Positions 467 through 24,398 of a DNA stretch of 24,398 nt are shown here, piece by piece. The stretch comes from a virus (lineage: Duplodnaviria; Caudoviricetes), in the IMG/VR virus record IMGVR_UViG_3300045192_000015, positions 1 through 24,398 of that record, one strand, 5' to 3'. The notes beneath the pieces are model-generated. The model did no database searches. It was given only the letters and a program-made list of their open reading frames with translations, and had not been told where the DNA came from. Every line of letters begins with the position of its first letter. Within the stretch, counting starts at the first letter, position 1. Position numbers and translations under genes: made by a program.

Positions 467-470
467 AACA

Positions 471-3659: not shown

Positions 3660-3673
3660 GAGTTATCGGGACC

Positions 3674-5668: not shown

Positions 5669-5696
5669 TGCGTCTTGCTCCTTTGCTATGGCGCGT

Positions 5697-5733: not shown

Positions 5734-5760
5734 ATGCAAAAACTAAGTTGTGAGATTTGG

Positions 5761-6261: not shown

Positions 6262-7691
6262 TAGGCGATCCTTTTCCACACTGTTGCGTAGTTGCCGGAA
6301 CCGACGCCGCAACTCACCCAAGAACCACCGGGGGAACCACCCTGAACGTTGCTACTGTTGGACCACTGAAGTAGCGATCCAGCAAGCACACTGCCCGGTG
6401 GAAATGAGGCCAGTTGGTTAGCTCGCATCATGGCGAAACCACCAACAGGCACGGTTTCCGACAAGAGGTAATCTCTTGTCCGCCAATATGCTCTGTCTTC
6501 AGTATAGACTTTGGCTTGGTATAAGCGGTCATCCGCAAACTCTCGAGCTCGTAGTTCAATTCGAGCATGGATTGCGGTGTAAGCATCGGCAGCTCCCCAG
6601 TTCTGCCAGATTGTGCCGACGATATTGCCATTAGTTTGAAATTGGGCGCCCGCCGCAAAAAGTACGCCGTCAGCTATGAAATTACCGTTCTTGCCGTCAA
6701 ACGTCCAAGTCTTCTGTGCTTGGCCATCGTTATGCATGTGAATGAGCTGGTAACTCGTCGCCTGCGCATTAGTACCGAGATTGATAACCCCCTGTGTCCA
6801 TACTCCGCCCCATGCACTGGTATTGTAAGTTGCGTTTAAAACCGGAGAATAGGTGTTGCCAATAGTGGTCGTCTGAGCCTTGAACGGAACGCGACGTTTA
6901 GGAACGCTCGCATACGACCCTCCAGCACTGTCAGCCCAAAAGCTCGCAAGCCAATCTTCACTTGGCGTGGCGGCTATTCCGCCGAGAGAGCCTGTGAGAA
7001 TGTCGCCAGCTTTCTTGATAAACACAGCGGACAGTGCTGCCTTTATGTTCGCCCATGTCGCTTTGAACATGGTGGTGCCGCCACCGGCAGCAACACCAGT
7101 GAAGAAGTCGCCGTCGTCAGGTGTAGACTTGGCGTTAGCGCCAGCGATTGCAGCGCCAACGGTAGCTGTTGTGGTCAGCGCGGGGAGTTGCGCTGTAGGC
7201 ACCTTGCCTCCGCTGTCGAGGGAGGCGACGCCACCGGCGGCACCTCTATCCACGGTTCCAAGTGCGTCAATGTTTGAGCGTCCTTGCGCTCGTTGCGCAA
7301 GGTTAAAGTTCGTTGCAGCGTCGACACGCACACGAACACCCAACGCGTCGCCGACGGTTTTGGCAAAGTTAGGATCGTTCCCTAGAGCGTCCGCCAGTTC
7401 CTTTAACGTGTCGAGGGCCGTGTCGGCTCCGCTTAGGAGATCATCGACCGCCTTTTTGATCGCTTGCGCAACCTCTTGAGCGGTCATACCATCGGTGATG
7501 CCATAACCGCCGAGCGTGGTCGGCCTATTCTCCAAATCAGCAAACTTGTGCGTGTGATTGCTGTAGGAAGTTTCGAACGACCTGATTTTGGCATCAATTG
7601 CAACCAGAGAGGTCGCTATTTTAGTGACCTCATTAATCTGGATGCCTTTAGGTGACGGCAAAGGCCAATCGTAATTTGCCGTATTAGCCAT
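6261..7691 (-). CDS. Tail fibre protein
   Basis: HTH...RPTTLGGYGITD fibre repeat, ALDTLKELADALGNDPNFA (gpH-like), GGVASLDSGGKVP, Gly-rich variable C-terminus. Confidence 0.92.
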   Translation of the reverse strand: MANTANYDWPLPSPKGIQINEVTKIATSLVAIDAKIRSFETSYSNHTHKFADLENRPTTLGGYGITDGMTAQEVAQAIKKAVDDLLSGADTALDTLKELADALGNDPNFAKTVGDALGVRVRVDAATNFNLAQRAQGRSNIDALGTVDRGAAGGVASLDSGGKVPTAQLPALTTTATVGAAIAGANAKSTPDDGDFFTGVAAGGGTTMFKATWANIKAALSAVFIKKAGDILTGSLGGIAATPSEDWLASFWADSAGGSYASVPKRRVPFKAQTTTIGNTYSPVLNATYNTSAWGGVWTQGVINLGTNAQATSYQLIHMHNDGQAQKTWTFDGKNGNFIADGVLFAAGAQFQTNGNIVGTIWQNWGAADAYTAIHARIELRAREFADDRLYQAKVYTEDRAYWRTRDYLLSETVPVGGFAMMRANQLASFPPGSVLAGSLLQWSNSSNVQGGSPGGSWVSCGVGSGNYATVWKRIA

Positions 7692-7694
7692 CTA

Positions 7695-10600: not shown

Positions 10601-11015
10601 TGCCGGGGATAGAGCCTTTCAAATCGACGTCGACAACGTCAGTTATCAGGAGTTCCGTGCTCCGGATGCCGATTGTCAGGTCGCCTTTGTTTGGAAGAAC
10701 AAAGGTTGCATCCGGAACGTCGTGGACAATGCCTTCCATATAGATCGGGCAGGCTGGCAAGCGCACCCGGATATGGTCGTCGTCTACGCTCTCGACGACG
10801 GGGTCTTGACCGTCCATTACGCGACCATCTTGCAGGATGTAATCAAAGCCCCTGCGCATATGGTCGATGTTCATCGACTGCATTTCGTTCAAATCAGCGG
10901 ATTGAAGATAGATACCCTTCTTATCTCTGCCGGTGTCCTGAAATGCTATCGCGTGACGGCGGAGCGAACGATCGAACCTGTCGCCGTAACCGGCGCGTTT
11001 AATGATGCTACTCAT
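7695..11015 (-). CDS. Large VrlC/DUF4815-like virion (baseplate/fibre-network) protein, about 1106 aa
   Basis: Starts MSSIIKR after a GGAGA SD; LQSADLNEMQ, VSEGTAYVNG, GLFVDPL, INPY and DPLAQTF motifs typical of this family; lies between baseplate and fibre genes. Confidence 0.8.
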   Translation of the reverse strand: MSSIIKRAGYGDRFDRSLRRHAIAFQDTGRDKKGIYLQSADLNEMQSMNIDHMRRGFDYILQDGRVMDGQDPVVESVDDDHIRVRLPACPIYMEGIVHDVPDATFVLPNKGDLTIGIRSTELLITDVVDVDLKGSIPGTEAYMEEGPSRVEITVLWGHSQDGDPKPLVSVYQVRDGVILTTSTNVDFSEIYKAIEGYSRESNGSFVFDGFLITALGPKANGKQGFSVSEGTAYVNGRRISRRQSLPFEVDEKPDLRNVDAEPHPFTGATRGTQTFKVSKAPIDKVRRVTVEKEITESVLHGPFSGAVDPLAHPSVTAILEIKQGDNVYKSPSSWLLSQGQIDWSPSGAEPAPGTTYTVKYRYNENIQPDEVTRDTVKVTGAAKDTNVLIDYAYKLPRIDAVCMDTTGTMVYVTGTSAVSRPRPPIISDSMIELARVSNDWGQKPFVENTGVRNVPYDEIQDIRTMLLDVYDLVAQERLKNDVSAREVGAKRGLFVDPLRNDAMRDQGIAQTAAVFGGKMTLPIYARLHEFPAFVGIRHLEFSEVAVIRQPRRSKAMKINPYQTFTPMPGRASVEPSTDVWTDKQTVWTSPETQAFEAGEGEFISGISLEQRVEKVSERVVNAEFIRQRDVNFRLEGFIENENLLVVEFDGVEVTPTVSGPADEDGVITGHFTTPANIPAGSKSIYFQGSAGTEAGCTYVGRGSITVEEYRLTSSLETTTETMPQPVVNNTVINNVTNVTNVTNVAANNATPVANREGRGGGGGTGHDPLAQTFTLAQSWCLSGIRLMCAKIGSRSNSIAVQLRTVEIGMPTQTVLAEAFVPGTDLVEGEVFTSRFNFPVFLQGGREFAFVALTDDGEHSLFIAEIGNIDIDTQAVISEQPFTVGVLLSSSNASTWTVHNEADLWFEMIGCRFDPVERVIPIGTFKANKMSDVIIRAGVEYPDPSVDVSIRLRRASGETITSAPSQTIRFDEYIQNEDIQVEAILRGTERVTPFLFPDIQIIEGEIQTTANYATRAIDAADTNRVLVTLDARLPAGSSAAVQIGMPGDYPNVAVSSATQLGDGLVEQTFIRSAYPAANLDARTLITITGTPAARPEISAVRMLLSKV

Positions 11016-11107
11016 GAAATGAGTTCTCCAAGATGGATAATTTTGCTTGCCAACCCAACCCTTTAAGCAGACGGTTGAATTCAATCAGTCTGGTGGGGGC
11101 TTTTCGA

Positions 11108-11344
11108 ATGTACGGACAGGAATTACTCGTCGCGGAGTTGATCGCGCTTCGCAGTTCGATTGCATCACTTGCGAGAGAAGTTCTCGCCAATCAGGGGTCA
11201 GACGCTTTCTTTATGGCGCAGCAGCGAGCGGAAAATTTTGCGGCCAACTCCAAGAATTCTCACGGCCTCTATCACCCAAAAATTCGGGAGCAGGCCACGA
11301 AGATTGTTGGCGATATTTTCAATCAGGCGGACAACGACTTATAA
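11108..11344 (+). CDS. Small antisense hypothetical protein (moron), 78 aa
   Basis: ATG at 11108 preceded by GGTGGGGG. It fills the only large gap in the tail module and reads as a helical protein (MYGQELLVAELIALRSSIASLAREV...). Confidence 0.65.
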   Translation: MYGQELLVAELIALRSSIASLAREVLANQGSDAFFMAQQRAENFAANSKNSHGLYHPKIREQATKIVGDIFNQADNDL

Positions 11345-11352
11345 ACACCAGT

Positions 11353-11871
11353 TCACATTGTCATGATGAAAGTGAACGTCTGTCCGATGGAGCCGTCGCG
11401 AACGATTGGCGAAAACCGATCAACTTCGATCATTCTTCCAATATCGACCACGTCGGCGACAGGGATGAACATTTTCCCGCCGGGGACACCTTCGGCCAGC
11501 TTGGTTCCGACATAGATGCCGGTTTCCCGAAGCGTGTTGTTGTTGGCGTCGTCCAGATCAAGCTGAAAGCGGAGGAACACAAAGCCGGTTGGATCGGTGC
11601 TCTGCGAATATTTCGCGCCATCCGCCATGACAATGTCGCCGTCCGGGTTTGGCACCACGAAATACTTGTCTCGCGTCCGCGTGACACCGACCGGGCTTTC
11701 GAGTTTGGAAAGTACCGACCATGCGGCATCTTGGGCGGCTTGTTCTTCTGGCGTCGAAGGTCGGGGCTGGTCGTCCCATGCTGGCAGACCTTCACCGACC
11801 GCGAGAAAGAGCGTCATATCGTAAAGCGCTTTCGCCAATGCGACGCGCCCGTCTTGGGTAAAGACAGCCAT
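11353..11871 (-). CDS. Baseplate/tail-collar protein (resembles a stand-alone fibre N-terminal domain)
   Basis: AVFTQDGRVALA...LAVGEG...W...TLRETGIY pattern; follows gpI with a 1-bp overlap. Confidence 0.65.
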   Translation of the reverse strand: MAVFTQDGRVALAKALYDMTLFLAVGEGLPAWDDQPRPSTPEEQAAQDAAWSVLSKLESPVGVTRTRDKYFVVPNPDGDIVMADGAKYSQSTDPTGFVFLRFQLDLDDANNNTLRETGIYVGTKLAEGVPGGKMFIPVADVVDIGRMIEVDRFSPIVRDGSIGQTFTFIMTM

Positions 11872-12680
11872 TATTCTGATCCTGTTTGGACACGCGGCAC
11901 CGGAGCGCCGAAGGATTGATGAACAAACGGCGCATTCTGAAATGCGACCGTTGCGGGATTGCGATAATCGACGCGAACCGCAGCCAGTGACGCGAAGCGC
12001 GCTGAGAGCTGATTGATCGGAATGCCTGCCCGAACGGTTCGAACCGTTTCGACATTCTGAATAGCGTTGACTTCGACACGTCCGCCGGTGGGTACAACGA
12101 CTTGTTTGCGATGATTGACGCGAATTGAAACAACAGGCCCGCCGGATTCCTTACGGGTCCCGGACCAAGTGTTGAGGCCCGCGTCACCGTTGAGCCGATG
12201 CTCATTAAGGCGAAACGCTCGCACGTCCCAACCGGCGGTCATTCTTGCGAATTCAGAGCGGAGCGGCTTAGAAGACATGACCAAGCGGGTCATGGGCCGG
12301 AGGAATTGAGTGTTCCGCGGTTCAAACGGCAGGTGAATTTGAAACCACCACCATTTGCGAGCAGTGGCCGGAAATTCCTCAATGTCCCCGTCGTGATTGA
12401 TCCAACGTAAGGATTTGTGGATCGCCGCAGGCGTACCAATTATGCGCTGCCATTGAATGCCCTCGAGAATGACGTCGCGAAGGTTTGGAAGGTACTCGGC
12501 AACTTCGGAGAGGCCGTATTCAGAAACCAGATAGGGAACAACCCTGTCTATCGGGTGAAATTTAAACCCGCGCAATTCGACAATGCCGGGTGACAATTCC
12601 GGGGTCCGGTCAAGGGCCTCCGAAAGCGTTTTTTCCAGCACCGTCGCATTACTTGGAAGCAATGCGGTTCGGTCTGCCAT
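11871..12680 (-). CDS. Baseplate wedge protein, P2 gpI-like
   Basis: LLPSNATVLEK...VPYLVSEYG...GTPAAI...KPLRS pattern; follows gpJ. Confidence 0.85.
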   Translation of the reverse strand: MADRTALLPSNATVLEKTLSEALDRTPELSPGIVELRGFKFHPIDRVVPYLVSEYGLSEVAEYLPNLRDVILEGIQWQRIIGTPAAIHKSLRWINHDGDIEEFPATARKWWWFQIHLPFEPRNTQFLRPMTRLVMSSKPLRSEFARMTAGWDVRAFRLNEHRLNGDAGLNTWSGTRKESGGPVVSIRVNHRKQVVVPTGGRVEVNAIQNVETVRTVRAGIPINQLSARFASLAAVRVDYRNPATVAFQNAPFVHQSFGAPVPRVQTGSE

Positions 12681-13552
12681 TAGTAATCGCGCCCCATATA
12701 GTTGAGTTTGATTGCCCCAATAGCGATTGCAGTTCCCGGAGAGGCAACGACTGGATCTGTTGGCGAAACCATCTCAACTCGTTGAACGCCCGCGAAATGA
12801 AGCTTTGCTTCAATCCATGAAGGAACGAGATCAAAACCGATTGCGGTATCGGAATCCCATGATTTCCGGAGCGCTGCTTCCAGAGGCGATAGATCTATTA
12901 AAGGCGCAGAAGGAAGGAGCCAGACATTTGCCTCGATATCTGTTGTTGTCGTGACTGCGGCCTCGACGATTATTGTGTCGTTGAGGGTGCGAACGCGGTC
13001 GCTTGTGACAATGTCAGTTACCGCACCAAGCATAGCATTGTCGGGAATCCCACCATTTTCGCGGGAGAGAATAGCAATATGGATGATCGGCCAGAAATCC
13101 TCCCGGAAAGCCTTGGCGCTGCGAATGCGCACATCAGCCCGCCGCGCCGCCGCCTCATACCAGTAAGCGCCGCCGCCGGGCGATCTCCCTTTGATTTCAA
13201 GAACGATGCGATCCCTAAAAGGTTCGTCGCCCTCACCTTCGAGGCGATCAACATCATAAAAAGCGGCCAAATGATCCAGGTCAGCACCACCAGCGAAAGC
13301 CAATAGATTAGCCAGAGCGGCATCATTGATGCGCGCGCGGACAAGCATTTCCCGATATGCTTCGGCTTCTTCCGTAATCTGGATGGGATCGGTTTCCAGA
13401 AGCTCGACGTCATAGTCCGGTAATTCTGGGTGCTTTTCCCGTATTATCCGCCAAAGCTCCTTAAGCAGCGCTATGCGCTGAGAAAGGATCACTTCATAGT
13501 CAAGAGTTTCGATGACGTCCGGCTTCGGATAAGTCGTAAGATCGAACGCCAT
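12680..13552 (-). CDS. Baseplate J-like protein
   Basis: PDVIETLDYE, AYREMLVRARIN, A.GADLDHLAA, EGDEPFRDRI, VRTLND motifs. Confidence 0.95.
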   Translation of the reverse strand: MAFDLTTYPKPDVIETLDYEVILSQRIALLKELWRIIREKHPELPDYDVELLETDPIQITEEAEAYREMLVRARINDAALANLLAFAGGADLDHLAAFYDVDRLEGEGDEPFRDRIVLEIKGRSPGGGAYWYEAAARRADVRIRSAKAFREDFWPIIHIAILSRENGGIPDNAMLGAVTDIVTSDRVRTLNDTIIVEAAVTTTTDIEANVWLLPSAPLIDLSPLEAALRKSWDSDTAIGFDLVPSWIEAKLHFAGVQRVEMVSPTDPVVASPGTAIAIGAIKLNYMGRDY

Positions 13553-13554
13553 AG

Positions 13555-13929
13555 TTATTGCCTTTCAAAGAAAACCCGCGTTTGAGCATCTTCCGGTCTG
13601 GAAAAGTCGCCCAAATGTCCCCGCGGATAATAGATGCCGAAGATTTGCAGCGAGAGCTTGCCGGTTTCATCAGCTCTGCTGATCTTGCAACCGGTCACAG
13701 CGAAACGCGGTTCCCACTGTGCTATCGCCATCACGACAGCCGAGTAAACCGCGAGGATGACACGGTCGGTTAGGGGACGGTCGATCAAGTTCAGGACTTC
13801 CGAACCAAACTCCCGGCGCATCACGCGGGAGCCGATAGCCGTAGTCAATATGACTTCAATCGACTGCCGGACGTGTTCGAAGTTCGACAATGGCCGCCCG
13901 TCCACACGATTGACGCCGCTTGAAGACAT
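13555..13929 (-). CDS. Baseplate gpW/gp25-family protein
   Basis: HVRQSIEVILTTAIGSRVMRREFGS...LIDRP...WEPR signature. Confidence 0.95.
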   Translation of the reverse strand: MSSSGVNRVDGRPLSNFEHVRQSIEVILTTAIGSRVMRREFGSEVLNLIDRPLTDRVILAVYSAVVMAIAQWEPRFAVTGCKISRADETGKLSLQIFGIYYPRGHLGDFSRPEDAQTRVFFERQ

Positions 13930-13934
13930 TGGCG

Positions 13935-14120
13935 TCAGCCCTTAGCTTTTTGGAGTTCTTTGTCGTTCGGCTTCTCGACTGGTTTAGGCAAGTCCAGTTG
14001 ATGCCCATAAGGGGGAAGAAACGGTCGCGCTGTAGTTTCAGGCATATCGACCTGTTTCGACGAAGCGTCACGCCAAGTGCCGCCGTAAAACCCGCTTTCT
14101 TTAACAATAACTTCCATCAC
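13935..14120 (-). CDS. Small hypothetical protein in the baseplate module (about 60 aa)
   Basis: Strong AAAGGAAA SD; exactly fills the gap between PAAR and gp25. Confidence 0.65.
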   Translation of the reverse strand: MMEVIVKESGFYGGTWRDASSKQVDMPETTARPFLPPYGHQLDLPKPVEKPNDKELQKAKG

Positions 14121-14132
14121 GGTTTTCCTTTT

Positions 14133-14390
14133 TTAATCGCACGCCCATCGAGACGCGCCAGAAATCAACGTTGCGCCGCAGGCCGTTGCATCGCCATGAC
14201 GAGCAATTGGCTCGCCTTCACATATGAATTTACCAGAGCCGCCAACAATCGGGTTTGATCCGTGTATCGGGCACGCATAGGTATCGCCGCGACGAGCAAT
14301 CAAAGCTCCTTCGCATTCCCATTTTGCTGCCGATGTTGTGATTGAACCGCCGTGCGACCCGGCATCGCCTAACCGGGCTATAAGTGGCAT
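14133..14390 (-). CDS. PAAR-domain spike tip protein
   Basis: Three repeats (IARLGD, IARRGD, PIARHGD) with His/Cys metal ligands (SHGG, CPIHG, CGA). Confidence 0.93.
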   Translation of the reverse strand: MPLIARLGDAGSHGGSITTSAAKWECEGALIARRGDTYACPIHGSNPIVGGSGKFICEGEPIARHGDATACGATLISGASRWACD

Positions 14391-14827
14391 TATCCTAGCG
14401 TTCCGCTGGACGCTCTAAAAGCGATGTTCGGCGCATCAATTGTCACCGTATCGTCGCCTATGAATAACCGGGCACTGCCCTTTACGATAACAGCCTCCGG
14501 GCCGTTGTGAGGTCGCGGATTTGCGTTGGAATGAGTGGAAAAGTCGATAATACCGTCGGTAAGGTCGCCGCTTTCTGAAACAACGTCGACCTGCTGTCCG
14601 ACGGTAGGAGGAATATGCGAGGATATCCCGCCAGCGGCGATTTCCTTCCAAGGCACCCACGGAGAAAGAAAAGGCCGATCCCCATCGTTCTCTATCAGAA
14701 CACGCGCAAGACCTTTATCTAGATCAAGCTTCTCTACGGTGCCTGTTCGCTTGCGATTTGCAGTGCGACGTTCAAGTTCGAACACCCGCCTTTGCATTTC
14801 CACGAACTCATCAATGAAATCAGCCAT
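14390..14827 (-). CDS. Baseplate central spike gpV-like protein (short, 145 aa)
   Basis: RTGTV...ARV...SPWVPW...AGG...PPTVGQQV..SESGD OB-fold signature. Confidence 0.9.
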   Translation of the reverse strand: MADFIDEFVEMQRRVFELERRTANRKRTGTVEKLDLDKGLARVLIENDGDRPFLSPWVPWKEIAAGGISSHIPPTVGQQVDVVSESGDLTDGIIDFSTHSNANPRPHNGPEAVIVKGSARLFIGDDTVTIDAPNIAFRASSGTLG

Positions 14828-15605
14828 GTGTTTCGACCGCTTCTACTTTCGCGATGGAAGGCTCGCCAGTTTCCGCAGATAGCGGCGGCGTGATAAAAAG
14901 CGCCCTCGCCTCATCAAGCGTCAGACCAAACCGTCGTCGCTGTTTTGCTGATTTGAGTTGCACGACGTCCAAGCCAAGAAGATCGCGCATGCTTGTCAAA
15001 TAAGGATGCTTGATCGCTGCCATCTGATCGAGCAGCTTTTGCCATAGCGACGTGGGCGCAATTGGTGCGCCATAGACTGGATCTGGCAGAATGTCGCAGA
15101 GAATGCATTGTTGATGGGCAGCCATCCGCGTTCCCGTTTCAGCATCAGCGGTTCGCCTACGATCCACCTTTGCAATATTGGTGACAAGCCCACGCCAGAT
15201 CTCAGCCCACTCATTGTCGGGATCCATCAGCGCTGCAACAGTCTCGCGGTCGACAACGTCGAGAAACAATTCAAAAGCGGAATCGGTAGCAGGAATACCA
15301 AACCCGATGATCGTGCTTTCGCCGGTCTCCTGATTGGTTTCCGTCATCGAGGCGGCAATGCCTGTTTCAATCAACAATTCAGTCAAACCATTGACCCAAA
15401 GCCTGCGACCAGTGCCGAGATCGTCCGCCTTAGCGCTGTCGGTATAGACTGAAATAAAAGGCTTTTCCTGATTGGTACGCAGACTTTCATCTGCGGCAAC
15501 ATCGAGCGAGCCAATCTCACTATCAAGTACATTGCCTTCAACAGATGTATTACCGCGCAAAGCTTCAATCGTAGCGATGCGCAATGCGATACGGCCAATA
15601 GACAT
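14820..15605 (-). CDS. Hypothetical neck/tail-completion protein
   Basis: Position between head-tail joining gene and gpV; translationally coupled on both sides; KPFISVYTD strand resembles tail terminators. Function from synteny only. Confidence 0.5.
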   Translation of the reverse strand: MSIGRIALRIATIEALRGNTSVEGNVLDSEIGSLDVAADESLRTNQEKPFISVYTDSAKADDLGTGRRLWVNGLTELLIETGIAASMTETNQETGESTIIGFGIPATDSAFELFLDVVDRETVAALMDPDNEWAEIWRGLVTNIAKVDRRRTADAETGTRMAAHQQCILCDILPDPVYGAPIAPTSLWQKLLDQMAAIKHPYLTSMRDLLGLDVVQLKSAKQRRRFGLTLDEARALFITPPLSAETGEPSIAKVEAVETHG

Positions 15606-15976
15606 CAGGAATGCCCCAACTTCAAAACAATGAGATTGCTATAGCGATCAGAAACCGCAGCCACTTCAAACCACGGCTTGCCGTCCCGATCATTGGCCCG
15701 CACTTTGTCGCCAGCTTGCGGCATCGGGCCATTATAGGTCGAGCGATCAAGGAATAATTCAGCTTCGCCTAATGAAAGGCGAGAGCGATATGTGCCGGTA
15801 GGTCCGGGAGCGTGAGAATCATCACCGCCGACATGAAGTACGGCGGTGGGGACTTCAATCATGGGCCGCGCTGGATCAGCCACCTGCCCTTTCATAAAAG
15901 ACAGACGAACTGACTCGCCATAGCTAAGGCCGATCTTCTGATCGACCATAGCTTCAAGTTTTCGCCAGTTCACCAT
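15605..15976 (-). CDS. Head-tail joining (head closure, gpFII-like) protein
   Basis: Size, position after capsid and DUF2190, and the P..GD.V...WFEV..V beta-barrel pattern. Confidence 0.7.
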   Translation of the reverse strand: MVNWRKLEAMVDQKIGLSYGESVRLSFMKGQVADPARPMIEVPTAVLHVGGDDSHAPGPTGTYRSRLSLGEAELFLDRSTYNGPMPQAGDKVRANDRDGKPWFEVAAVSDRYSNLIVLKLGHS

Positions 15977-15982
15977 GAGCGG

Positions 15983-16306
15983 TTACACCGACAAGCGAAC
16001 CGCGCCGGATCCGGAAGGATTGGCAACCGCTTCAGTTGCGTGACCGATGAAGGTATTGCCCGATGCAGCTGTCGTCAGAACCTTATCTGCGGCAATGTAA
16101 TAGACTTTGGCACCAACGGTCCAAGCCTGCGCTTGTTCTTTGGGCAATTCAAAGACGCCTTCGGTCGCAATTTCGACCGGATCGCCTTCTGCAGCTGAAA
16201 ACTCTGCAACGCCAAACAGACTACCAATGACAACAAGGTCGCCGGATTTCACATCGGCAGGAGCTGGCACAGTAACCGTCTTGCCGGGCTGGATATAGTT
16301 TTTCAT
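15983..16306 (-). CDS. DUF2190-like capsid cement/decoration protein
   Basis: MKNYIQPGKTVTVPAP..VKSGDLVVIG.LFGVA...EGVFELPK...G.KVY signature. Confidence 0.9.
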   Translation of the reverse strand: MKNYIQPGKTVTVPAPADVKSGDLVVIGSLFGVAEFSAAEGDPVEIATEGVFELPKEQAQAWTVGAKVYYIAADKVLTTAASGNTFIGHATEAVANPSGSGAVRLSV

Positions 16307-16342
16307 GGGAATAACCCTTTTGAATATCGAAACGGGAGGAAT

Positions 16343-16363
16343 GGCGGATCAATCAGATCCGCC
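16343..16363 (-). terminator. Hairpin 3' of the capsid gene (mRNA stabiliser or weak terminator)
   Basis: Perfect 8-bp inverted repeat GGCGGATC-N5-GATCCGCC; poor U-tract. Confidence 0.5.
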
Positions 16364-16372
16364 GATGTTCGT

Positions 16373-18007
16373 TTAAGCCCCGGCGTTCTTGTATCCGAAG
16401 CGATAATCGGTAGCGCCACAACCGAAGTCATGTTCAACCGACATGCTGAAACCCTGTCGACCGAAAGGCTCATCCATGCGAACGCGCGGCGCTTCGTAGC
16501 CTTCCAGATAGCCCCAGCGGTAATTTGAACCGGATGCAGGATCTGCAAGCAGATGCCAGGCATTGCCTTCGATCTGATTGGTTTCGATCAATTCAAACTT
16601 GCCGGAGAAAATGTTGACGGTCGCAATGGTTGCAGGCGTGATCGACGCAAGGAACTTTTCAGCTTCGGTGAGCTTGTCCGGACCAACCAGCATGATGCGA
16701 GCAGCGTTCGAAAGCAGTGGATTACCATCAATGCTCTTTTGCTTGCTCATCGCCTTACGACCTTCGCCAACGGCGTCGACTGTGATGGCAGACGCGGTTC
16801 CGGCAAGGTTCTTGTGTTCGGCATGAAAGACCGTCTTGCCATCGGCAAGATTGCCGTTGAAGGCACCCGCATAGAAGGTAACTTCCTCGAACAAAGCCAC
16901 CGACGCACCATAACTTGTCAGCAGTTCCGAGATTGCGCCGAGATCATCGTTGATAAGCATCTGACGGCTGATATTGAGCGCAATCGCATAGCTGAATGCC
17001 TGGACCTGCTCTTTGCCTTCACCGAACGAGCCATACTTGATCTCGCCGTTCTCCAGTACCTTTTTCAGAAGCGGGAAATCGCCGACCTTGACGGTGGTGT
17101 CTGGACGGAAGTCACGAAAATTACGCTTACGCGCAAATCGCTTGAATGTCGGCTGGGCCAATGCGTAACGCTGTTCAAGTGTGCGATTAACAGCGCCTTC
17201 GAAGATTACAGGGAAGTCCGATGTTGAATGCGATGCACGGGTGAACACATCGTCGATATCGCGAGCATTCATCATGCGACGACCGCGATAGTTCACACTT
17301 TCAGCCGCGATATCTACAAGGCCCATACCCATGAACTGGCGAGCGGCAGCTGACGGACCAGCATCCGGTGTCGGCGCGCCAAGGCCATAGGCCAACGCTT
17401 CGATCTGCGCAGAACGACGGGTATCGCCTTCATCGCGGATCACATTGACGCGGCTGTCAGTCGGGGCATTCCGCTCATTATTGACCATGTGATCAAGCAG
17501 CAAACTGCGGAAAGCATCGACAGTCGTACCGGAGCGGACATGTTCACGGCCAAAGTCAGCAAAACCAGAACGTAAGGCCAGTTCTTCAATCGCGTTAGAA
17601 CGTTCACGTTCAGCGCGCACCGCTGCATCTGCGACAGCTTGCGGATCAGTGTTAACAGGGGGCGCATTTCGCTGTTCGTTTTCCAGTCGGGCAATATCGG
17701 CTCGCACCTGATCGGCTTCTGCCAGAATATCCGCATGTGCCTTTTCGATTGCGCGAACAGCCGCTTCGTCCAGATCGTCTGTGATTTCAGCACGCTTGGC
17801 TTCGGCCCGCGTGGTGATATCCGTGAGTTTGGCGCGCAGACCCAACAGAGCGATGTTAGCGCCAATGACATGCATACCGCTTGGTTGTGTGAGCATGCCA
17901 TGATCGAAAGATGCTGCATGCGATGGATCAGCTGCGAAGAACGCAAAAGCCAGACCGACGCAGAAGATTGCGGCGACGGTCGCGAAAATGTGAGCACCCT
18001 TTTTCAT
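16373..18007 (-). CDS. Major capsid protein precursor with N-terminal scaffold-like region and hydrophobic leader
   Basis: HSTSDFP, DFRP, ENGEIKYG, ISRQMLINDDLGA, YGYLEG-like (WGYLEG), HDFG motifs; coiled-coil AERER region; GAAGGAAG SD. Confidence 0.93.
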   Translation of the reverse strand: MKKGAHIFATVAAIFCVGLAFAFFAADPSHAASFDHGMLTQPSGMHVIGANIALLGLRAKLTDITTRAEAKRAEITDDLDEAAVRAIEKAHADILAEADQVRADIARLENEQRNAPPVNTDPQAVADAAVRAERERSNAIEELALRSGFADFGREHVRSGTTVDAFRSLLLDHMVNNERNAPTDSRVNVIRDEGDTRRSAQIEALAYGLGAPTPDAGPSAAARQFMGMGLVDIAAESVNYRGRRMMNARDIDDVFTRASHSTSDFPVIFEGAVNRTLEQRYALAQPTFKRFARKRNFRDFRPDTTVKVGDFPLLKKVLENGEIKYGSFGEGKEQVQAFSYAIALNISRQMLINDDLGAISELLTSYGASVALFEEVTFYAGAFNGNLADGKTVFHAEHKNLAGTASAITVDAVGEGRKAMSKQKSIDGNPLLSNAARIMLVGPDKLTEAEKFLASITPATIATVNIFSGKFELIETNQIEGNAWHLLADPASGSNYRWGYLEGYEAPRVRMDEPFGRQGFSMSVEHDFGCGATDYRFGYKNAGA

Positions 18008-18051
18008 GGTGTGCGCTTCCTTCTAAGTACCGGGCAAAACAAGCGCCGTCG

Positions 18052-18075
18052 GCCTGCAACCCCGGAGTTGCAGGC
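18052..18075 (-). promoter_or_regulatory. GC-rich hairpin in the protease-capsid intergenic region
   Basis: GCCTGCAAC-N6-GTTGCAGGC, 9-bp perfect stem, extendable; TTGTTTT follows a few nt later on the minus strand. Confidence 0.55.
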
Positions 18076-18101
18076 GGCAAACTGATAAATTGTCGTGATT
18101 G

Positions 18102-18755
18102 TCAGCCGATGCGGCGAACGGCTTCCGCCATTCTCATACGTGCAGCAGCTGCGGCAGTCGAAAAGCCTGCGCCCAAGTATGACAGTGGGAATGTGCCAGC
18201 CTGCGAGCGGACCTGCGCATCAGGATCTGCGGGGATTGTCACAAAGGAAATTTCGTTCGGCGTCCAGCGCTCGACAATAACCTTTTCGACCTCACCCTTT
18301 TTAGTAGCTTCCTCGACGCGGATCTTGTCGATGGAGTATCCAACCGACACATTCTTGATGATGCCGTCAGAGACGAGGCCAAACATTCGATCTGCCCGCT
18401 CATCAATTCCCGCTTTGGGAAAGCGAATACTCGCTTTACCTTCACCGCTATCAATCCACGCGCGTTCAACCACGGCGACCTGCGAAAACGTTGACCATGC
18501 GGAATGACTGTCGAGAACGGGAGCGCCCGCATTCATACGCGTGAGATCAATCGCTTTGTCGCTGACAACGAGAACCTCATCGAATGGAACGACCGTATCC
18601 CAGCCAACATAGCGACGGCGCCGTACGGTTGCGCCAGCTGTCCAGACGAGTTCAACCGTCCGTGTTTCGGCATTAATGCCGGAGGGAAGTAAGCGAACCT
18701 CCTGCATCTGCATTGGCAGACTATCCGGCATCTTGCGCAGATTAAGTTTCGTCAT
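18102..18755 (-). CDS. HK97-type prohead maturation protease
   Basis: GAPVLDSH (His), NVSVGY (Ser), W.P.EISFVTIPAD motifs. Start placed at MTKL after AAGGA. Confidence 0.92.
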   Translation of the reverse strand: MTKLNLRKMPDSLPMQMQEVRLLPSGINAETRTVELVWTAGATVRRRRYVGWDTVVPFDEVLVVSDKAIDLTRMNAGAPVLDSHSAWSTFSQVAVVERAWIDSGEGKASIRFPKAGIDERADRMFGLVSDGIIKNVSVGYSIDKIRVEEATKKGEVEKVIVERWTPNEISFVTIPADPDAQVRSQAGTFPLSYLGAGFSTAAAAARMRMAEAVRRIG

Positions 18756-20274
18756 CGTTTTCATCCTTGTCGGGAGGATCATCAGAATCGCTGTTTTGTT
18801 GCGTTTGTCCGGCCTGCGAGATGCGGCGCGGATCGCTGTCAAAGATCAAACCCTTGTCATCCAGCTTTTTGTTGAAAGCCTCAATCTCGTCGATCACGTC
18901 TTCTGGATTTTCACCCGTCTCAGCAATTGCGGATGGAAGGGACCGGAAACCTGCGCGGACTTCCAGAACTCTCGCTTTCACATCCTTCAGCGGATCCGCT
19001 GAATAGAAGCGAGGCGGCGACCACTCGGCTTCCACGGTCGGCGTCTGGATCTTGCCAGCCAGATATGCGGCCTCGCAAAACCAGTCCCACAGAGGCTGCA
19101 ACAGCATTGGAATGATCACCTGCCATTGCAGCATTGAAATCATCCGGCGAAAGCCTTCCAGCCCGATCTTGCTCGACGAGTAGTTAACCTTGTCGAGCCT
19201 GCCGGTCATAAGAGCGAACGGAACCCGCCAACCCGCAGCCACCGTATGCAACATCGAAGTCTTGTAAGGGTCGTAGCTGTCAGTGACAGCAGGCTGCGAG
19301 AACTTAATATCACGGCCACCGACAGCATTGAGGAACATGCCCGGTTCAACCTTTTCGACCCTCTGCCCACGAGCGTTGTAGAGGCCCGGTTGAAGTGCTT
19401 TTCCATCCTCACCGGTCATTGGCATACCGATATTGTCGTCAATATCGCCACCCGTCATGACACCGACGAGACAAGCTTCCAGCCTCTTTCGAACTAATTC
19501 GGCCTGCTCATATTCAGCCAGATCAAACGTGTCTGACATTGCAGGCGTACCCCATGGCACACCCCTCACCTGCGTGCGCTGCTTTTCGAAAACATGCGCA
19601 ATGTCAGCCGCAGGCACCGGCTTGGAAACAATGGTCGACTGCGGATCAAAGAAGCTGTTTCCGGGGTGCGAACCAAACATCCAATAGGCGCGTTTGCGTC
19701 CGATGGCATCAAACTCAATGCCTTGAATGGTTTTGCCGCCGCCAGACAATACACCCTCTTTCGTGGTGTCTATCAGATCTGATTCCAGCACCTGCAATTG
19801 CAGCGGAACCGGCAATCCATCCTCAAGTCTGCGGCGACGACGGCGCACGATACCGTCACCGCTTTCAAACATTTCCCGAACTGCAAGGGCCACGATCCCA
19901 TTAAAGTCGAGATCACCATCCGCATCACAGTGCTTGCTCCATTCAAGAAACAGCTTATTCAGTTCTTTATTCTTGGATCTGGGAATGATCCCATCACCAA
20001 TCGCATGACTGACAAGCTCGGATATCGCTTTTGCAGCGTAGGGATTGTTGCGGACAAGATCGCGCATGCGATCCCGAAGGACGCGACCCGCCCGCGTAAT
20101 CTCAGCATCAGCGGACGTGGACTTCGCCCGCCTACCCGATTTTAGCCGGCCGGTTTCCGCACCACTGTAGCTGCGCTGCGCAATCTCCATTGCGGCCCGC
20201 TGCTGCACCCGACGTAAGCCAGCCTGCGGCGAGACATAGCCAATGGCCTTATCCAGAATATTGGTGATGCTCAT
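18742..20274 (-). CDS. Portal protein, lambda gpB family
   Basis: LRDRMRDLVRNNPYA, GIEFD..G...AYW, QVRGVPW, VNYSS, DPLKD motifs; TGATG coupling to gpW. Confidence 0.96.
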   Translation of the reverse strand: MSITNILDKAIGYVSPQAGLRRVQQRAAMEIAQRSYSGAETGRLKSGRRAKSTSADAEITRAGRVLRDRMRDLVRNNPYAAKAISELVSHAIGDGIIPRSKNKELNKLFLEWSKHCDADGDLDFNGIVALAVREMFESGDGIVRRRRRRLEDGLPVPLQLQVLESDLIDTTKEGVLSGGGKTIQGIEFDAIGRKRAYWMFGSHPGNSFFDPQSTIVSKPVPAADIAHVFEKQRTQVRGVPWGTPAMSDTFDLAEYEQAELVRKRLEACLVGVMTGGDIDDNIGMPMTGEDGKALQPGLYNARGQRVEKVEPGMFLNAVGGRDIKFSQPAVTDSYDPYKTSMLHTVAAGWRVPFALMTGRLDKVNYSSSKIGLEGFRRMISMLQWQVIIPMLLQPLWDWFCEAAYLAGKIQTPTVEAEWSPPRFYSADPLKDVKARVLEVRAGFRSLPSAIAETGENPEDVIDEIEAFNKKLDDKGLIFDSDPRRISQAGQTQQNSDSDDPPDKDENDDET

Positions 20275-20468
20275 CAATCTAACGCCGCCAGTATGATACG
20301 AGACCGGCCTTGTCTGCGGGATCTGAGATCCGCAAGCGCCTCTCGCATATCTTTGAGGGAATGATATTCCACCTCGCGGCGCGTGCCGCCCGAATGGAAA
20401 ATGACTTTCTTTGCGCCTGTTGCTATCGCATCTTCGAGCGCTGCAATTTGATCATCTAACGTCGCCAT
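20274..20468 (-). CDS. gpW-like head-tail adaptor
   Basis: IAALEDAIATGAKKV...VEY.SL..MR.AL; lies between TerL and portal. Confidence 0.88.
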   Translation of the reverse strand: MATLDDQIAALEDAIATGAKKVIFHSGGTRREVEYHSLKDMREALADLRSRRQGRSRIILAALD

Positions 20469-20470
20469 GG

Positions 20471-22288
20471 CTATAACCACTCCGAAGGTGCGATTTCTGG
20501 TATGTTTGAAACCCGTTTGGTTTCAGGCGGCGTGGAAAGTTCGCCCTCGCGATGCGCCCAGTTGGCGTTGACCATCTGTCGGGCTGCAAAGGCGTAGACT
20601 GTGCAGTCAAGCGCTTCGTGTCGCCGCCCAGGCACCGGAACGAATTGCCGTATCGTCTGTCCGCGTGAATACTTGACAACCAATTGCTCACCCACGAGTT
20701 GCTCAAACCAAACATCCGGCAGAGCTTTCGAAAAACGCATGGAGCTGGTACGTGCCAAGCGACCGAAGATATGGCTTTTGATACCGTCAACACCGACAAT
20801 GAAAAGCTTACCGCCCTTTACGGTCGACTTGGATTTCTCAATCCATGGCCTGTTACCGCCGACACCCTTGATTGCGAACACGCGCCTGCGGAACCGTGGG
20901 AATGCGTAACGATAGACGGTTTCCATCGTCTCGCCGTCCGAGCTGTCGATGCAGGTTGCTTCAACCTTGATCTTGCCGCCAAGCGGATGATCCCACTGCG
21001 TACCAAGCGCGACATCCAATTCCGACCATGTTGTATGATCGTCGTAACGGCCCCAAATCACTTCGTGGCCGAGAGCATAAGGAATGCCCTCTTTGTCCCA
21101 ACCAATAAAGGTGACTTCCAGACGATCATCCTGAACGTCAACGCCTGCGGTGATGATCAGAACTTGGATAGGTATCCCAGTGGTGCCCGTTTCGCTCTCA
21201 TCCTCTGGCGCTTCCGCAACAAGACTGAAATCTTCGGCACGGCTTGCAAGCTCAATATCATCCAGCTCGTCGGTGTTTTCCTTCCAGCCTTGCGCGAGGA
21301 TCGTGTTGATGAAGGTCTGTAGCTTCGAAGGATCATTCTTCGCGCTCACAAACTCCTTAGCCAGCCGCCCCCATGATGCATTTGGCAGAAGCGAAATCAG
21401 GGCATTCATCCGAAACCCGGCATGGTCTTTGACTTCGGGCTTAAGTGCTCGCCACCGGCCATTCGTGACCATACCCGGCTTATGCCGTTCGTCGATTACG
21501 GAACCGCATTCCCGGCAGACATAATAAGTCTTTTCGGGTTCACCTTCCGGCCAGTGAATGTCAGACCATTGTATCTCGTGGAAGTGCCCGCATTCAGGGC
21601 AAGGTACCTCGTAAATGCGCTGATCCGAATCCTTGTAGGCTTGCAGCACGTGGCTGGTTTCTTCATAGACCGGCGTCGACCCCATAACGATCTTACGATC
21701 AGCAAATGAGAGTGTTCGACGTTCGGCGAGAAGAATGGGCGAACCTTCCTTCGTTGCCGTCATGCCGTCCGCTTCATCGATAAACAGAATGCGAACATTG
21801 TGACGGCGAAGGTTACGGGGTGCCTTAGCTGCGATGACTTTGAGAAAACCACCCGGAAAGCGACGGGACAACAGTGTGTTGCGCCCGCCTTCATCAACAT
21901 CACCAGTCAGCAGACCTTGCAGATCCGGTGACGCATCAAAGATCGGCTCAACGTCCGAAACCATATAGTCGCGGCAGTCAGCCTCTGTTGGCAACAGGGA
22001 CAGGATTGGCGATGGATCGTTCGAACAGAAACTTGCCATGGCACTGGTGAGCAGCGTGGTGAAACCGACGCGAACAGGCTTTACCAGTGTCACCCTTTCA
22101 ATTGCGGTATCACCGATGGTGTCTGCAATCTCTCGCTGCGGAGGCCATAGACGCACCCGACCCGTAAGCGATGAAACACCTTCAGGAAGGTAAACCGTTT
22201 TCTCGATCCAGTCCGACAGCTTCAGTTTCGGCGGAGGTGTTAGCCCCTCCCAAACTGCCCGCCGTAATATCGTCAGCGCTACCGTCAT
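20471..22288 (-). CDS. terL: Terminase large subunit, lambda gpA family
   Basis: KPVRVGFT Walker A variant, ILFIDEAD Walker B, GSTP, CPEC/CREC, GVDVQDDR nuclease, EALDCTVYA. Confidence 0.97.
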   Translation of the reverse strand: MTVALTILRRAVWEGLTPPPKLKLSDWIEKTVYLPEGVSSLTGRVRLWPPQREIADTIGDTAIERVTLVKPVRVGFTTLLTSAMASFCSNDPSPILSLLPTEADCRDYMVSDVEPIFDASPDLQGLLTGDVDEGGRNTLLSRRFPGGFLKVIAAKAPRNLRRHNVRILFIDEADGMTATKEGSPILLAERRTLSFADRKIVMGSTPVYEETSHVLQAYKDSDQRIYEVPCPECGHFHEIQWSDIHWPEGEPEKTYYVCRECGSVIDERHKPGMVTNGRWRALKPEVKDHAGFRMNALISLLPNASWGRLAKEFVSAKNDPSKLQTFINTILAQGWKENTDELDDIELASRAEDFSLVAEAPEDESETGTTGIPIQVLIITAGVDVQDDRLEVTFIGWDKEGIPYALGHEVIWGRYDDHTTWSELDVALGTQWDHPLGGKIKVEATCIDSSDGETMETVYRYAFPRFRRRVFAIKGVGGNRPWIEKSKSTVKGGKLFIVGVDGIKSHIFGRLARTSSMRFSKALPDVWFEQLVGEQLVVKYSRGQTIRQFVPVPGRRHEALDCTVYAFAARQMVNANWAHREGELSTPPETKRVSNIPEIAPSEWL

Positions 22289-22937
22289 CGTCCTTTTCAC
22301 CAAGCTCCGCTAACGCTGCTCGAATTTCTGTATCGATCAGGTCGACATCGTAAGTTGTGAGGTGCGGCAACATCTGTCGGCATCGAGAAGGAACCGACAT
22401 GACCATGTTTCGAATACGCCGTGCGATGGACACCCATTCGTGCCGCACTTCTGCGACCGTGATCAGTTCCTTGCGCATCGCGGCATTTTTCATTGCAGCC
22501 TGATCGGCTTGCTCACGTGCAAGGCGGGCACGTTCCGTTGCCAGCACGTCGACATTTTCACCGCCGCGCCCTGCTGCCATTGTTCGAATATGCTCGCAGT
22601 AACCTTGGACCGACTTTCTAAAGTCGAAGCGATTCCGCCCTGTCTTCACAATGATTCCACGTTCGGCATAATCAGAGATTGCCCGCTTCGACACTCCGAT
22701 CACATCAGCGAGGTCCAGCGCTGTGACGCTACCGTCGTCGACCGGCATTTCATCCTCTTGCGGCTGCTGAACTTCCGTAAACAGCTGCGCTTCGGGTTGG
22801 TCGACATGCTTTTTGTGTGTTTTCGCTGCGAAACTGGGGCTTACGCCGAATTTCTCCGCCGCCTGCCTAACTGTGTTGCCCTCATTGATGAAGTCAATCA
22901 CTTGCTGCCGCAGCTCGTCCGAATAGCCTTTAGCCAT
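22182..22937 (-). CDS. terS: Terminase small subunit (Nu1-like) with an extra N-terminal HTH
   Basis: Nu1-like winged HTH (DLADVIGVSKRAI...RFD...VQGYC), coiled coil ERARLAREQAD...KNA, position between cos and terL. Alternative start at 22748. Confidence 0.85.
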   Translation of the reverse strand: MAKGYSDELRQQVIDFINEGNTVRQAAEKFGVSPSFAAKTHKKHVDQPEAQLFTEVQQPQEDEMPVDDGSVTALDLADVIGVSKRAISDYAERGIIVKTGRNRFDFRKSVQGYCEHIRTMAAGRGGENVDVLATERARLAREQADQAAMKNAAMRKELITVAEVRHEWVSIARRIRNMVMSVPSRCRQMLPHLTTYDVDLIDTEIRAALAELGEKDDDGSADDITAGSLGGANTSAETEAVGLDRENGLPS

Positions 22938-22993
22938 CTGATTCCGATTCCATCCAAATGGCGGGGGAATCCCCCTATGATATTTCACACAGG

Positions 22994-23048
22994 GCGAAAT
23001 CCCGCAGTCGCGCTCACCCGCTCCGGTCACAGACCGGGGAAAGGACCC
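22994..23048 (-). other. Lambda-like cos site (cosQ, I2, cosN)
   Basis: Minus strand GGGTCCT-TTCC...(36 nt after cosQ)...GCGGGATTTCGC, versus lambda GGGTCCT-TTCC...(36 nt)...GCGGGTTTTCGC (lambda sequence from memory); directly upstream of terS. Confidence 0.85.
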
Positions 23049-23118
23049 AATGGAGGGGGTGGGGTCAGGGGTCGAAGGGTTGACCGGGTCGGTCGGGTGC
23101 CCTGCCCTGATCGGCAGC

Positions 23119-23688
23119 CTATGGCAGCAACTTCTTGATCGCTGCGTCGACACGCTCTTGAAGCAATGGCGCTGCCATACGTTCGAATGCAGCCTTGGTT
23201 GATCCCTTGGTCATTTCCACTGGGATAAACACATCCGACCGGGTGTAGCTAATACGACTGCCTGACTTGTTAAGCCGGTGAAAGACGTGTCCGTAAAACT
23301 TTGGCACATCCTGTCGGTTCGGAAACTTGCCACCCTTCATAAACGACCCCGCAAAAACCTTGCGCTGTCCGAATGGCTTGGCCGAGACACCCTTGCGGGT
23401 TTCCTTCGGCGACAGGTATTTCAGGCGAATGTTACCGCCTCGCGTGACCATATCGTAAGAAAGCTTGCCGGGTCTTGCGACACCGGGATCGCCAATTGCT
23501 TTGACGATTGTCTTACGCTGCAAGCCGGTCTGTTTCGTCAGCGCACGAATAACTTGCGTCTTCGCCCTGTTGCCAACCTGATTGACGATACGTGGCAGCA
23601 CTTTAGGAAAGCGTGTGTTCAGCTGGTTAAGCCTGCTACCAAACAGTGACAGGTGCTTGTCAGCCCAGTGCGCCGTTATCGTTGCCAT
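23119..23688 (-). CDS. Probable gpZ-like minor tail/neck protein
   Basis: Very basic; RIVNQVGNRAKTQV.R.LTKQTGLQRKTI and FAGSF patterns resemble the lambda gpZ family; AGAGG SD. Confidence 0.6.
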   Translation of the reverse strand: MATITAHWADKHLSLFGSRLNQLNTRFPKVLPRIVNQVGNRAKTQVIRALTKQTGLQRKTIVKAIGDPGVARPGKLSYDMVTRGGNIRLKYLSPKETRKGVSAKPFGQRKVFAGSFMKGGKFPNRQDVPKFYGHVFHRLNKSGSRISYTRSDVFIPVEMTKGSTKAAFERMAAPLLQERVDAAIKKLLP

Positions 23689-23702
23689 GAGCAGCCTCTA
23701 TA

Positions 23703-23732
23703 GAAAATGGAAAGAGCGCCTCAGGGGCGCTC
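23703..23732 (-). terminator. Intrinsic terminator in front of the late operon
   Basis: GAGCGCC-CCTGA-GGCGCTC followed by TTTCCATTTTC, ending about 15 nt before the first late ATG. Confidence 0.75.
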
Positions 23733-23754
23733 AATGGTATCGGTGATTGGTAGA

Positions 23755-23911
23755 CATAGCTTACGCACTGGCCCTGAATCGGTGTCTCAAGTTTGAGACT
23801 GTCAGGGCGGGGTCCGACCGGCGTACCAACCTCAGAACTTTCGTTCCCGCTGTCTAGGCGTTCTCAGAGGCTCACTACAGGATCATCGGATTATCCGTGA
23901 GCAGAATACGC
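23755..23911 (-). ncRNA. Putative structured cis-regulatory leader RNA
   Basis: Nested stems found by eye: 23911-23905 with 23827-23821; GCTCAC/GTGAGC; CCTC/GAGG with a GAAC-GAAA-GTTC tetraloop; GCCCTGA/TCAGGGC enclosing GTCTCA/TGAGAC. Confidence 0.55.
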
Positions 23912-24398
23912 TCACAAAGGTTCGAGGATTGCAAGAGGCATAATTGCTGGCGTCGATCTTCCAAAGAAATCGATATCAACCACCGCGTTACCCTTTCCAT
24001 CGTGACCGCCTGAAACAATCTCTCCATTGCGCCCGGCAAATATCCCATCACGAATATGAACTTTCATACCTCGCTTGAATACAGCTTGGGGCACCTCATG
24101 ATCAAAATGACCGCTCTCTGCTTTCTCGTTGAAAGACAATACCTTATCGGCTGAAACGAGGTGAGGATTTTCATAACCTCCAAGTATGCCAGCGACATAC
24201 TCAAAGCTCAATAATGCAGCCATGGTGTCATTTGAAATGATGCAGCGGGCGAAGATGTAACCAATGAAAATCGGTTCTTTTCTAGGTGGGATAACACGAT
24301 GACGCTTGCGTATTTCCTTGCCCAATTTCATGGGGACAAGTGTTTCGATATCAGCATCCAATAGAGCGTTACCCACAGCGATTTCACGGCCAGTCATC
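23912..24398 (-). CDS. NusG/RfaH-family transcription antitermination factor paralogue (5' end probably outside the window)
   Basis: NGN domain (TGRE, VP, PIFIGYIF, V.GILG) and KOW domain (G.KVHIRDGIFAGRNGEI, IDFFGRSTP). Confidence 0.9.
   Translation of the reverse strand, partial: MTGREIAVGNALLDADIETLVPMKLGKEIRKRHRVIPPRKEPIFIGYIFARCIISNDTMAALLSFEYVAGILGGYENPHLVSADKVLSFNEKAESGHFDHEVPQAVFKRGMKVHIRDGIFAGRNGEIVSGGHDGKGNAVVDIDFFGRSTPAIMPLAILEPL

Follow-up and report, generated by a model that had tools for sequence, protein, structure and literature searches.

A NusG paralogue and an ops-like leader word as a candidate late-gene switch of temperate Rhizobiales phages

The window analysed here is a single virus record of 24,398 bases (IMG/VR record IMGVR_UViG_3300045192_000015) from a temperate Rhizobiales phage. 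It spans the junction at which the replication genes give way to the virion genes, with the virion operon and a NusG-family gene both on the minus strand. The leader between them holds a folded RNA, a near-invariant word resembling the ops element and an intrinsic terminator. The order of gene, folded RNA, word and terminator is conserved, which makes an antitermination switch of the virion genes likely. In our reading, a phage antiterminator substituting for lambda Q would load at this word in the manner of ops, and on comparative sequence evidence we give this a probability of about 0.7. Most likely, the system resembles RfaH and ops placed in the slot of lambda Q.

The initial annotation had described a NusG-family gene, a 223-nucleotide (nt) non-coding gap after it and an intrinsic terminator ahead of a co-oriented morphogenesis operon of ~ 23 kb. 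We recovered all of these elements. The open reading frame (ORF) at 24398-23912 (-) matches Pfam NusG (E 1e-9) and PHROG 6386 (E 3e-27), which is labelled 'transcription antiterminator', and the gap occupies 23911-23689. The terminator at 23732-23704 has a stem of 7 pairs, 6 of them G-C (-12.3 kcal/mol), and the tail TTTCCATTTT; its U-tract is interrupted, so it is perhaps of middling strength. The virion operon is present on the minus strand as described, but it runs past the other contig end and 23 kb is therefore only its minimum length.

Gene and leader are almost always linked. A 23-letter pattern containing no protein information retrieved 113 viral loci, 109 of them with the paralogue just upstream; the other four have 53-300 nt of upstream DNA, and the end of the paralogue gene is visible by eye in three. 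In GTDB genomes the paralogue lay just upstream at 51 of 55 pattern loci (160/168 with the viral loci added). By name, 48 of these 51 belong to Rhizobiales or one of its genera, one is given only as Alphaproteobacteria and one only as Proteobacteria, and the last is filed as a Shinella metagenome-assembled genome, also rhizobial. The four GTDB loci without a paralogue are non-rhizobial, have no hairpin and score 15-23 bits, which fits chance. The initial annotation had proposed checking whether homologues keep the same leader. They do: when loci were picked by the protein, 47 of 49 carried the RNA strongly (46-142 bits with the RNA model, many of these loci being close to its training set), one scored 17.7 bits and one gave nothing. 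The model found the RNA at 0/5 host nusG loci. Scans with the model, in which 20 or 75 candidates were scored per genome and which give no prevalence figures, returned the seed and one chance match in coding DNA from 151 class-level genomes. From 41 family-level genomes they returned the seed together with a single new copy next to a paralogue and a 28-bit match that had no paralogue.

Two further occurrences were seen. In a 34%-complete record (L294, 1030-1220) we saw a promoter-like site, a leader and the exact word but no paralogue, possibly a site acted on in trans, or chance. A stretch of 32 letters of the window (23752-23783, the word plus the 3′ strand of the hairpin P2 described below) is common to a second, otherwise unlike contig in two RNA libraries, probably from another phage bearing the same element.

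The word itself is near-invariant. Its general form is GCG(T)AAGC-TATG, that is, GCGTAAGC or GCGAAGC, then TA, then TG, placed about 15-22 nt ahead of the terminator. Among 49 distinct protein-picked leaders, 46 carry the word with a four-base loop, two have a three-base loop and one has none; G5, C6, A10, G11, C12, T15 and G16 are invariant in the 46. The window contains one exact copy, and no convincing second loading site was found in it or in two whole phages. A search with the short form gave 12 loci, 11 with the paralogue upstream; at five of these the paralogue is distant (E about 1e-24) and the upstream fold is unmatched by the RNA model, and the word and terminator are kept. An E value of about 1e-24 is weaker than that of host NusG on the same profile, so the kinship of these distant paralogues is unsure. 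The distant leaders fall into types whose folds differ while the word is the same (L288, L289, L293, L295 and L298 in one, L311 and L353 in another), and in leaders of the L288 type the terminator follows directly after the word. A 14-letter word search over a third of the collection gave 120 loci; the paralogue lay upstream at 55 of them and in no case downstream or on the opposite strand, and the remaining 65 are presumably chance. Loop letters change 22 times on the tree of 97 phage proteins, and a one-to-one code between loop and protein was not evident there. Comparative evidence favours loading of the paralogue in the leader, as the initial annotation had suggested, but the best candidate site is the word (23770-23755) and not the whole fold. 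At one locus (L401, 206-282) a tRNA-Met gene lies directly after the word, in the place of the terminator.

We then characterized the protein. The contig ends within the gene, the first 56 codons lie beyond it and the ATG at 24397 is internal residue 57; near-identical copies (P0002 and L007) give a full length of 217 amino acids and overlap the end of a helix-turn-helix replication-type gene. AlphaFold, run with 134 sequences, predicted a long N-terminal helix (17-41), an NGN domain (51-150) and a β-barrel KOW domain (168-216) with a mean confidence score (predicted local distance difference test) of 92. NGN followed by KOW is the arrangement of the NusG/Spt5 family; Foldseek and a PDB profile search both ranked NusG first (sequence profile E 1e-39), then a LoaP-RNA entry (8f5g) and RfaH, and the paralogue profile is far nearer NusG than RfaH. 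The N-terminal extension of ~ 50 residues is helical and has a median length of 51 in 97 phage proteins versus 4 in 34 host NusG. Phage paralogues keep W51, G102 and Y103, which we take to lie in the polymerase-binding face, and have lost 33 columns conserved in the host proteins.

By the tests that we ran, the paralogue is not a housekeeping NusG, nor a member of the RfaH, LoaP, UpxY or Q families. All seven family members tested fell below the curated cut-offs for NusG, RfaH, LoaP and UpxY. The scores were 44.8 versus 135.7 bits for the housekeeping NusG equivalog, 26 versus 144.5 for RfaH, 32.4 versus 125 for LoaP and 50.8 versus 100 for UpxY (78.8 for the best of the seven). In a quick tree, which gave long-branch warnings, the 97 phage proteins clustered apart from seven host NusG with a support of 100. 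All five host genomes checked carry their own nusG beside the phage copy. A profile search returned 191 clusters at E ≤ 1e-10, most of the 150 listed being 200-240 amino acids long; those close homologues that carry a name come from species of the Ochrobactrum group and, in one case, from a Mesorhizobium. DNA context is to hand chiefly for the closer family members, and in a protein-profile search of 401 genomes the matches were swamped by housekeeping nusG.

The position of the gene would suit a late regulator. In the isolated phages phi3LM21, PPF1, Rivra, vB_MseS-P1 and Nsp-JY10, four of which have rhizobial hosts, the paralogue is the last gene of the replication arm, ahead of HNH, neck or terminase genes, and carries the GenBank homology label 'transcription antitermination protein NusG', whereas the leader carries no annotation. 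Integrase, repressor and CII-like genes stand in lambda-like order in phi3LM21 and Rivra. Downstream ORFs (60 scanned of the 96 longest) comprised 15 terminase small subunits, 14 members of one unnamed family (phrog_12540), 11 HNH, 11 neck and three minor tail proteins, and six others or without a match. The Q family (PF06530) was above cut-off in 0/5 related phage records, and none of the Q, Ogr and Mor families was found among 65 small or regulatory ORFs from three phages. The proposed replacement of lambda Q agrees with these results, the slot being filled by the NusG paralogue. One phage filed under the host Nostoc (L011, PP395642.1) has a module nearly the same as that of Rhizobiales-type prophage leaders, which makes the host label doubtful.

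By a rule-based search, 47 of 60 leaders have a terminator no more than 80 nt from the word, or 46 once a false call (L132) was discarded, at a median offset of 15 nt; the same rule gave 1/108 in coding-sequence windows and 16/60 on the reverse strand. One locus with a miscalled gene end (L163) was left out of the promoter, terminator and folding counts. The terminator hairpin had a probability above 0.9 in 46/46 full leaders, and pairing of its 5′ arm with the upstream leader was no better than in shuffled sequences (median z 0.17, four below -2). With no competing fold, read-through most likely depends on a factor and not on refolding of the leader. A riboswitch or attenuator was considered and ruled out on the same grounds.

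The remainder of the leader is a covarying RNA family that is real, conserved and without an Rfam match: Rfam returned only four weak matches far below gathering scores for the window end and none in 11 related loci. The gap folds better than shuffled sequences (z -2.69; 1/200 shuffles equally good). We aligned 61 non-redundant leaders with MAFFT, using no structure, and scored 21 named pairs, among them those of two elements, helix P1 and hairpin P2. Paired cells amounted to 92.6% versus 81.6% in shuffles and two-sided changes to 142 versus 45.6, with 0/500 shuffles as high, and slid controls dropped to 21-49%. The number of pairs with a two-sided change (11 versus 9.3; 79/500 shuffles as high) is alone not distinctive, and kinship among the sequences inflates these measures. 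Compensatory change was seen in 5/5 counted pairs of P1 and 5/5 of the P2 inner stem, neither of which was fixed by the search pattern, and in 1/7 pairs of the P2 outer stem, whose 3′ side was fixed by it. RNAalifold, applied to 20 leaders of the window's class, recovered P1, P2, a hairpin in the word and the terminator unaided. Two variants of the fold were seen. A subclade (L095, L199, L227 and L239) has facing CTGATG / TTGATG segments in the variable domain, which we take to be reminiscent of a kink-turn. At L291, a locus in the record that also holds L025, a protein closely related to that of the window is combined with the P2-and-word module of the distant L287 type, which suggests that leader halves are exchanged.

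A promoter-like site, which the initial annotation had not noted, may overlap the end of the gene. TTG occurs 20-26 nt ahead of the end of the stop codon in 60/60 leaders, by way of Leu CTT in 41, Ile ATT in 12 and Val GTT in 7, and 196/728 comparable codons elsewhere in the same genes give TTG. By eye, 9 of 60 relatives have TA exactly 17 nt past the TTG hexamer. In the L288 type the sequence TTGACT lies wholly outside the gene. A sigma-54 promoter was ruled out by eye, as the GG at -24 is missing. The coordinates of all features are collected in the table.

Table. Features of the window around the NusG-paralogue leader and in the late operon
Feature	Coordinates	Strand	Evidence
Phage NusG paralogue, 3′ 161 codons	23912..24398	-	Pfam, PHROG, full-length copies, AlphaFold, Foldseek
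Predicted -35 element TTGCAA in the last codons of the paralogue	23929..23934	-	TTG kept in 60/60 leaders
Weak -10 candidate CGTATT, 18-nt spacer; start predicted near A23898	23905..23910	-	
P1 helix, 23890-23885 with 23818-23813, closing a variable branched domain; conserved GG-A-Y-G-A 5′ of the helix	23813..23890	-	
P2 hairpin, outer stem 23808-23802 with 23777-23771, asymmetric internal loop	23771..23808	-	
P2 inner stem	23799-23795 with 23788-23784	-	
Near-invariant word CAGTGCGTAAGCTATG; core GCGTAAGC 23766-23759, final TG 23756-23755; predicted pause/loading site	23755..23770	-	
Intrinsic terminator, stem 23732-23714, then TTTCCATTTT	23704..23732	-	
Ribosome-binding site AGAGG of the first late gene	23695..23699	-	Read from sequence
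First late gene, neck/tail-completion protein	23119..23688	-	phrog_27, E 2e-16
Gap of 181 nt ahead of terminase small subunit; likely packaging (cos) site	22938..23118	-	
Rest of virion operon: terminase, portal, protease, capsid, baseplate, tail fibre, sheath, tube, tape measure	254..22937	-	

Taken with the linkage, the retention of nusG by the hosts, the missing Q and the lack of a fold competing with the terminator support a dedicated NusG paralogue that would act through the leader, as the initial annotation had proposed. We infer the steps, namely promoter activity, termination, pausing at TG, loading of the paralogue and read-through, from the sequence. RNA polymerase would start at the promoter overlapping the last codons of the paralogue, or arrive from the early operon. 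Without the paralogue it would stop at 23732-23704 and release an RNA of ~ 190 nt. At the TG of the word the polymerase would pause, and a small hairpin would arise from the GCG..AGC core on the non-template DNA strand, as in ops. The paralogue, made as the last product of the early operon, would load there in place of host NusG and could carry the polymerase through the terminator and an operon of at least 23 kb, also shielding it from Rho. The fold of P1 and P2 would be accessory: it might strengthen the pause, offer a second handle, perhaps to the N-terminal helix, or stabilize the short RNA.

In lambda, Q is the last early gene and is followed by a promoter, a leader of ~ 200 nt, a terminator and the late operon. 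The phage module shares this layout (Q/pR'/qut/tR'), with a predicted promoter; it differs in that its protein belongs to the NusG family and its conserved element would lie ~ 130 nt into the transcript and not between promoter boxes. AlpA and Caulobacter GafZ are described as acting like lambda Q (PMC11150451). With RfaH and ops of enterobacteria the phage system has in common an NGN-KOW paralogue, a long target operon and a short, invariant word in the leader that has a GCG..AGC core and ends in TG. Requirements reported for ops are the C3:G8 pair and TG at positions 11-12 (10.1101/264887), and the hairpins are given as GCGGTAGC for ops and YGCGNAGCR for opsX, with GCG..AGC stems common to both (PMC11685472). 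The exact ops is GCGGTAGC, one base, then TG, whereas the phage word is GCGTAAGC, two bases, then TG; the stem is shared, and the loop letters and the spacing differ. The phage protein also has its 50-residue N-terminal extension, its gene lies directly upstream of the target, and its leader adds a strong terminator and covarying RNA. The KOW domain of RfaH is autoinhibitory, α-helical and fold-switching, whereas that of the phage protein is a β-barrel in a single prediction, which is compatible with fold switching. In PMC7593976, rfaH-like genes are noted on prophages and a phage late operon is absent from the targets in sections 9 and 11.

UpxY and opsX of Bacteroides capsule operons share with the phage system a locus-specific paralogue, a GCG-N-AGC core (the phage short variant is TGCGAAGC), an upstream hairpin and early termination in the leader, but the phage gene precedes its leader whereas the UpxY gene follows it. 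No UpxZ-like neighbour was seen in the five annotated phages. LoaP (dfn/mln, Bacillus) likewise has its paralogue beside the target and a leader with hairpin, pause and intrinsic terminator, the last scored in 46/60 of the phage leaders; its targets are antibiotic clusters rather than a phage late operon, and the leader alignment (A3) contains no LoaP-type conserved UNCG loop. Literature searches in openly available papers found no description of the system, although the data sets of PMC7593976 and published RNA-motif catalogues might list these proteins or this RNA, and a term search of the main text of the phi3LM21 paper (PMC5537653) found no mention of antitermination, terminator or promoter.

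We considered whether the paralogue might be a late antiterminator that binds nascent RNA as LoaP does, at the GC-loop-GC hairpin of the word or at P1/P2, rather than non-template DNA. LoaP is reported to bind a leader hairpin and read through a leader terminator (PMC12691694), the LoaP-RNA structure is among the fold matches, RNAalifold pairs the word as a short hairpin and covariation upstream of it is strong. Against this, the word never covaries and its pairing probability in RNA is about 0.5, the upstream fold is replaceable, and the invariant final TG suits a pause signal better than a hairpin; we regard RNA loading as unlikely. The put RNA of HK022 is a leader RNA that itself antiterminates, and two adjacent covarying stems followed by a pause-like word would suit such an element, with the paralogue acting separately or just in support. 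However, every strong occurrence of the RNA came with the paralogue, a protein-free antiterminator ahead of its own terminator yields no timing switch, and the fold varies by clade whereas the word and protein type persist, all of which makes this account very unlikely.

Another improbable account makes the paralogue a processivity or anti-Rho factor, or one that competes with host NusG, with the terminator ending the early operon or a small RNA and the late genes depending on an unrecognised activator. The absence of a terminator from at least nine of 60 leaders would suit this, as would the possible small RNA outlined by promoter, fold and terminator and the finding that RfaH works mostly by excluding NusG and Rho (PMC7593976, section 11). 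Yet only 15 nt, ribosome-binding site included, separate the U-tract from the first late gene, none of six sigma-70-like scan matches lay on the minus strand in 3000-22999 (a scan that is weak for alphaproteobacterial promoters), and known activator families numbered 0 among the 65 ORFs. The ATG in nearly all copies of the word, 15-22 nt ahead of the hairpin, could begin a leader peptide that controls the terminator by translation attenuation. We rejected this as almost certainly wrong: the peptides run from 1 to 159 residues with no common sequence, one copy has TTG, and there is no alternative fold to switch to.

Several observations weigh against the preferred reading of the word as an ops-like loading site for an antiterminator. 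The terminator went unscored in 14 of 60 leaders, of which five have a hairpin with a weak tail and nine have none by eye, and phage vB_MseS-P1 also lacks one. The word's DNA hairpin is of marginal stability (0 to -0.7 kcal/mol), and its core is separated from TG by one base more than in ops. P2 ends 16 nt short of the predicted pause, whereas opsX pause hairpins end at -12 to -9 (PMC11685472). RfaH is reported to act inefficiently on intrinsic terminators (PMC7819879), so loading in the manner of ops does not imply antitermination at a hairpin. The -10 candidate of the window is poor and a simple promoter scan makes no call there, which leaves the promoter a prediction, and a diverged late activator could escape Pfam. 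Neighbouring elements are co-inherited, so linkage alone is no proof of action. Eighteen RNA runs contain the stretch of the window; the four examined are contigs, one of 34 kb, which makes DNA carry-over likely and the runs uninformative on starts, ends and levels.

If the preferred reading is right, it adds a phage branch to the specialised NusG proteins, for which the mapped loading sites in the literature covered are those of RfaH, LoaP and UpxY only, and it names a candidate regulator, site and terminator for the timing of virion and lysis genes in the five isolated phages. It would provide a compact system in which to ask whether GCG..AGC-TG serves generally as a loading signal and by what means such a factor gets past an intrinsic terminator, something that RfaH does poorly. 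It also adds an RNA family without an Rfam match and may supply a portable antitermination part for use in alphaproteobacteria. A broader view, which we hold tentatively and at slightly less than even odds, is that of a widespread undescribed class of phage late switch, in which alphaproteobacterial temperate phages captured a host nusG and made it a substitute for Q; the protein would read an ops-like DNA word and also, by means of a new N-terminal helix, an exchangeable folded RNA. In this view GCG..AGC-TG would be a general docking code for specialised NusG proteins, since RfaH, UpxY and at least three phage leader types have either retained it or evolved it anew.

In the virion operon downstream, all 25 long ORFs taken from 23688 down to 254 are read from the minus strand. 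For 22, Pfam or PHROGs gave a match to a named neck, terminase, portal, capsid, baseplate or tail family; the gaps between genes are mostly below 150 nt, the largest being 268. The most likely start of the terminase small subunit is 22937 (22937-22182, -), giving 251 amino acids with an extra N-terminal helix-turn-helix. The late transcript would cross the putative packaging site ahead of this gene (23118-22938); the PPF1 record stops ~ 90 nt past its matching neck gene, and its first 12 letters equal its last 12. The head protease (18842-18102) and capsid protein (18007-16373, both -) are two ORFs with 94 nt between them that match consecutive parts of a single fused family, phrog_4523. The tail is P2-like and contractile, joined to a lambda-type head, with a PAAR gene, a BW3TFN gene and a 1129-residue DUF4815 protein at 14390-14133 and 11871-7695 (-).
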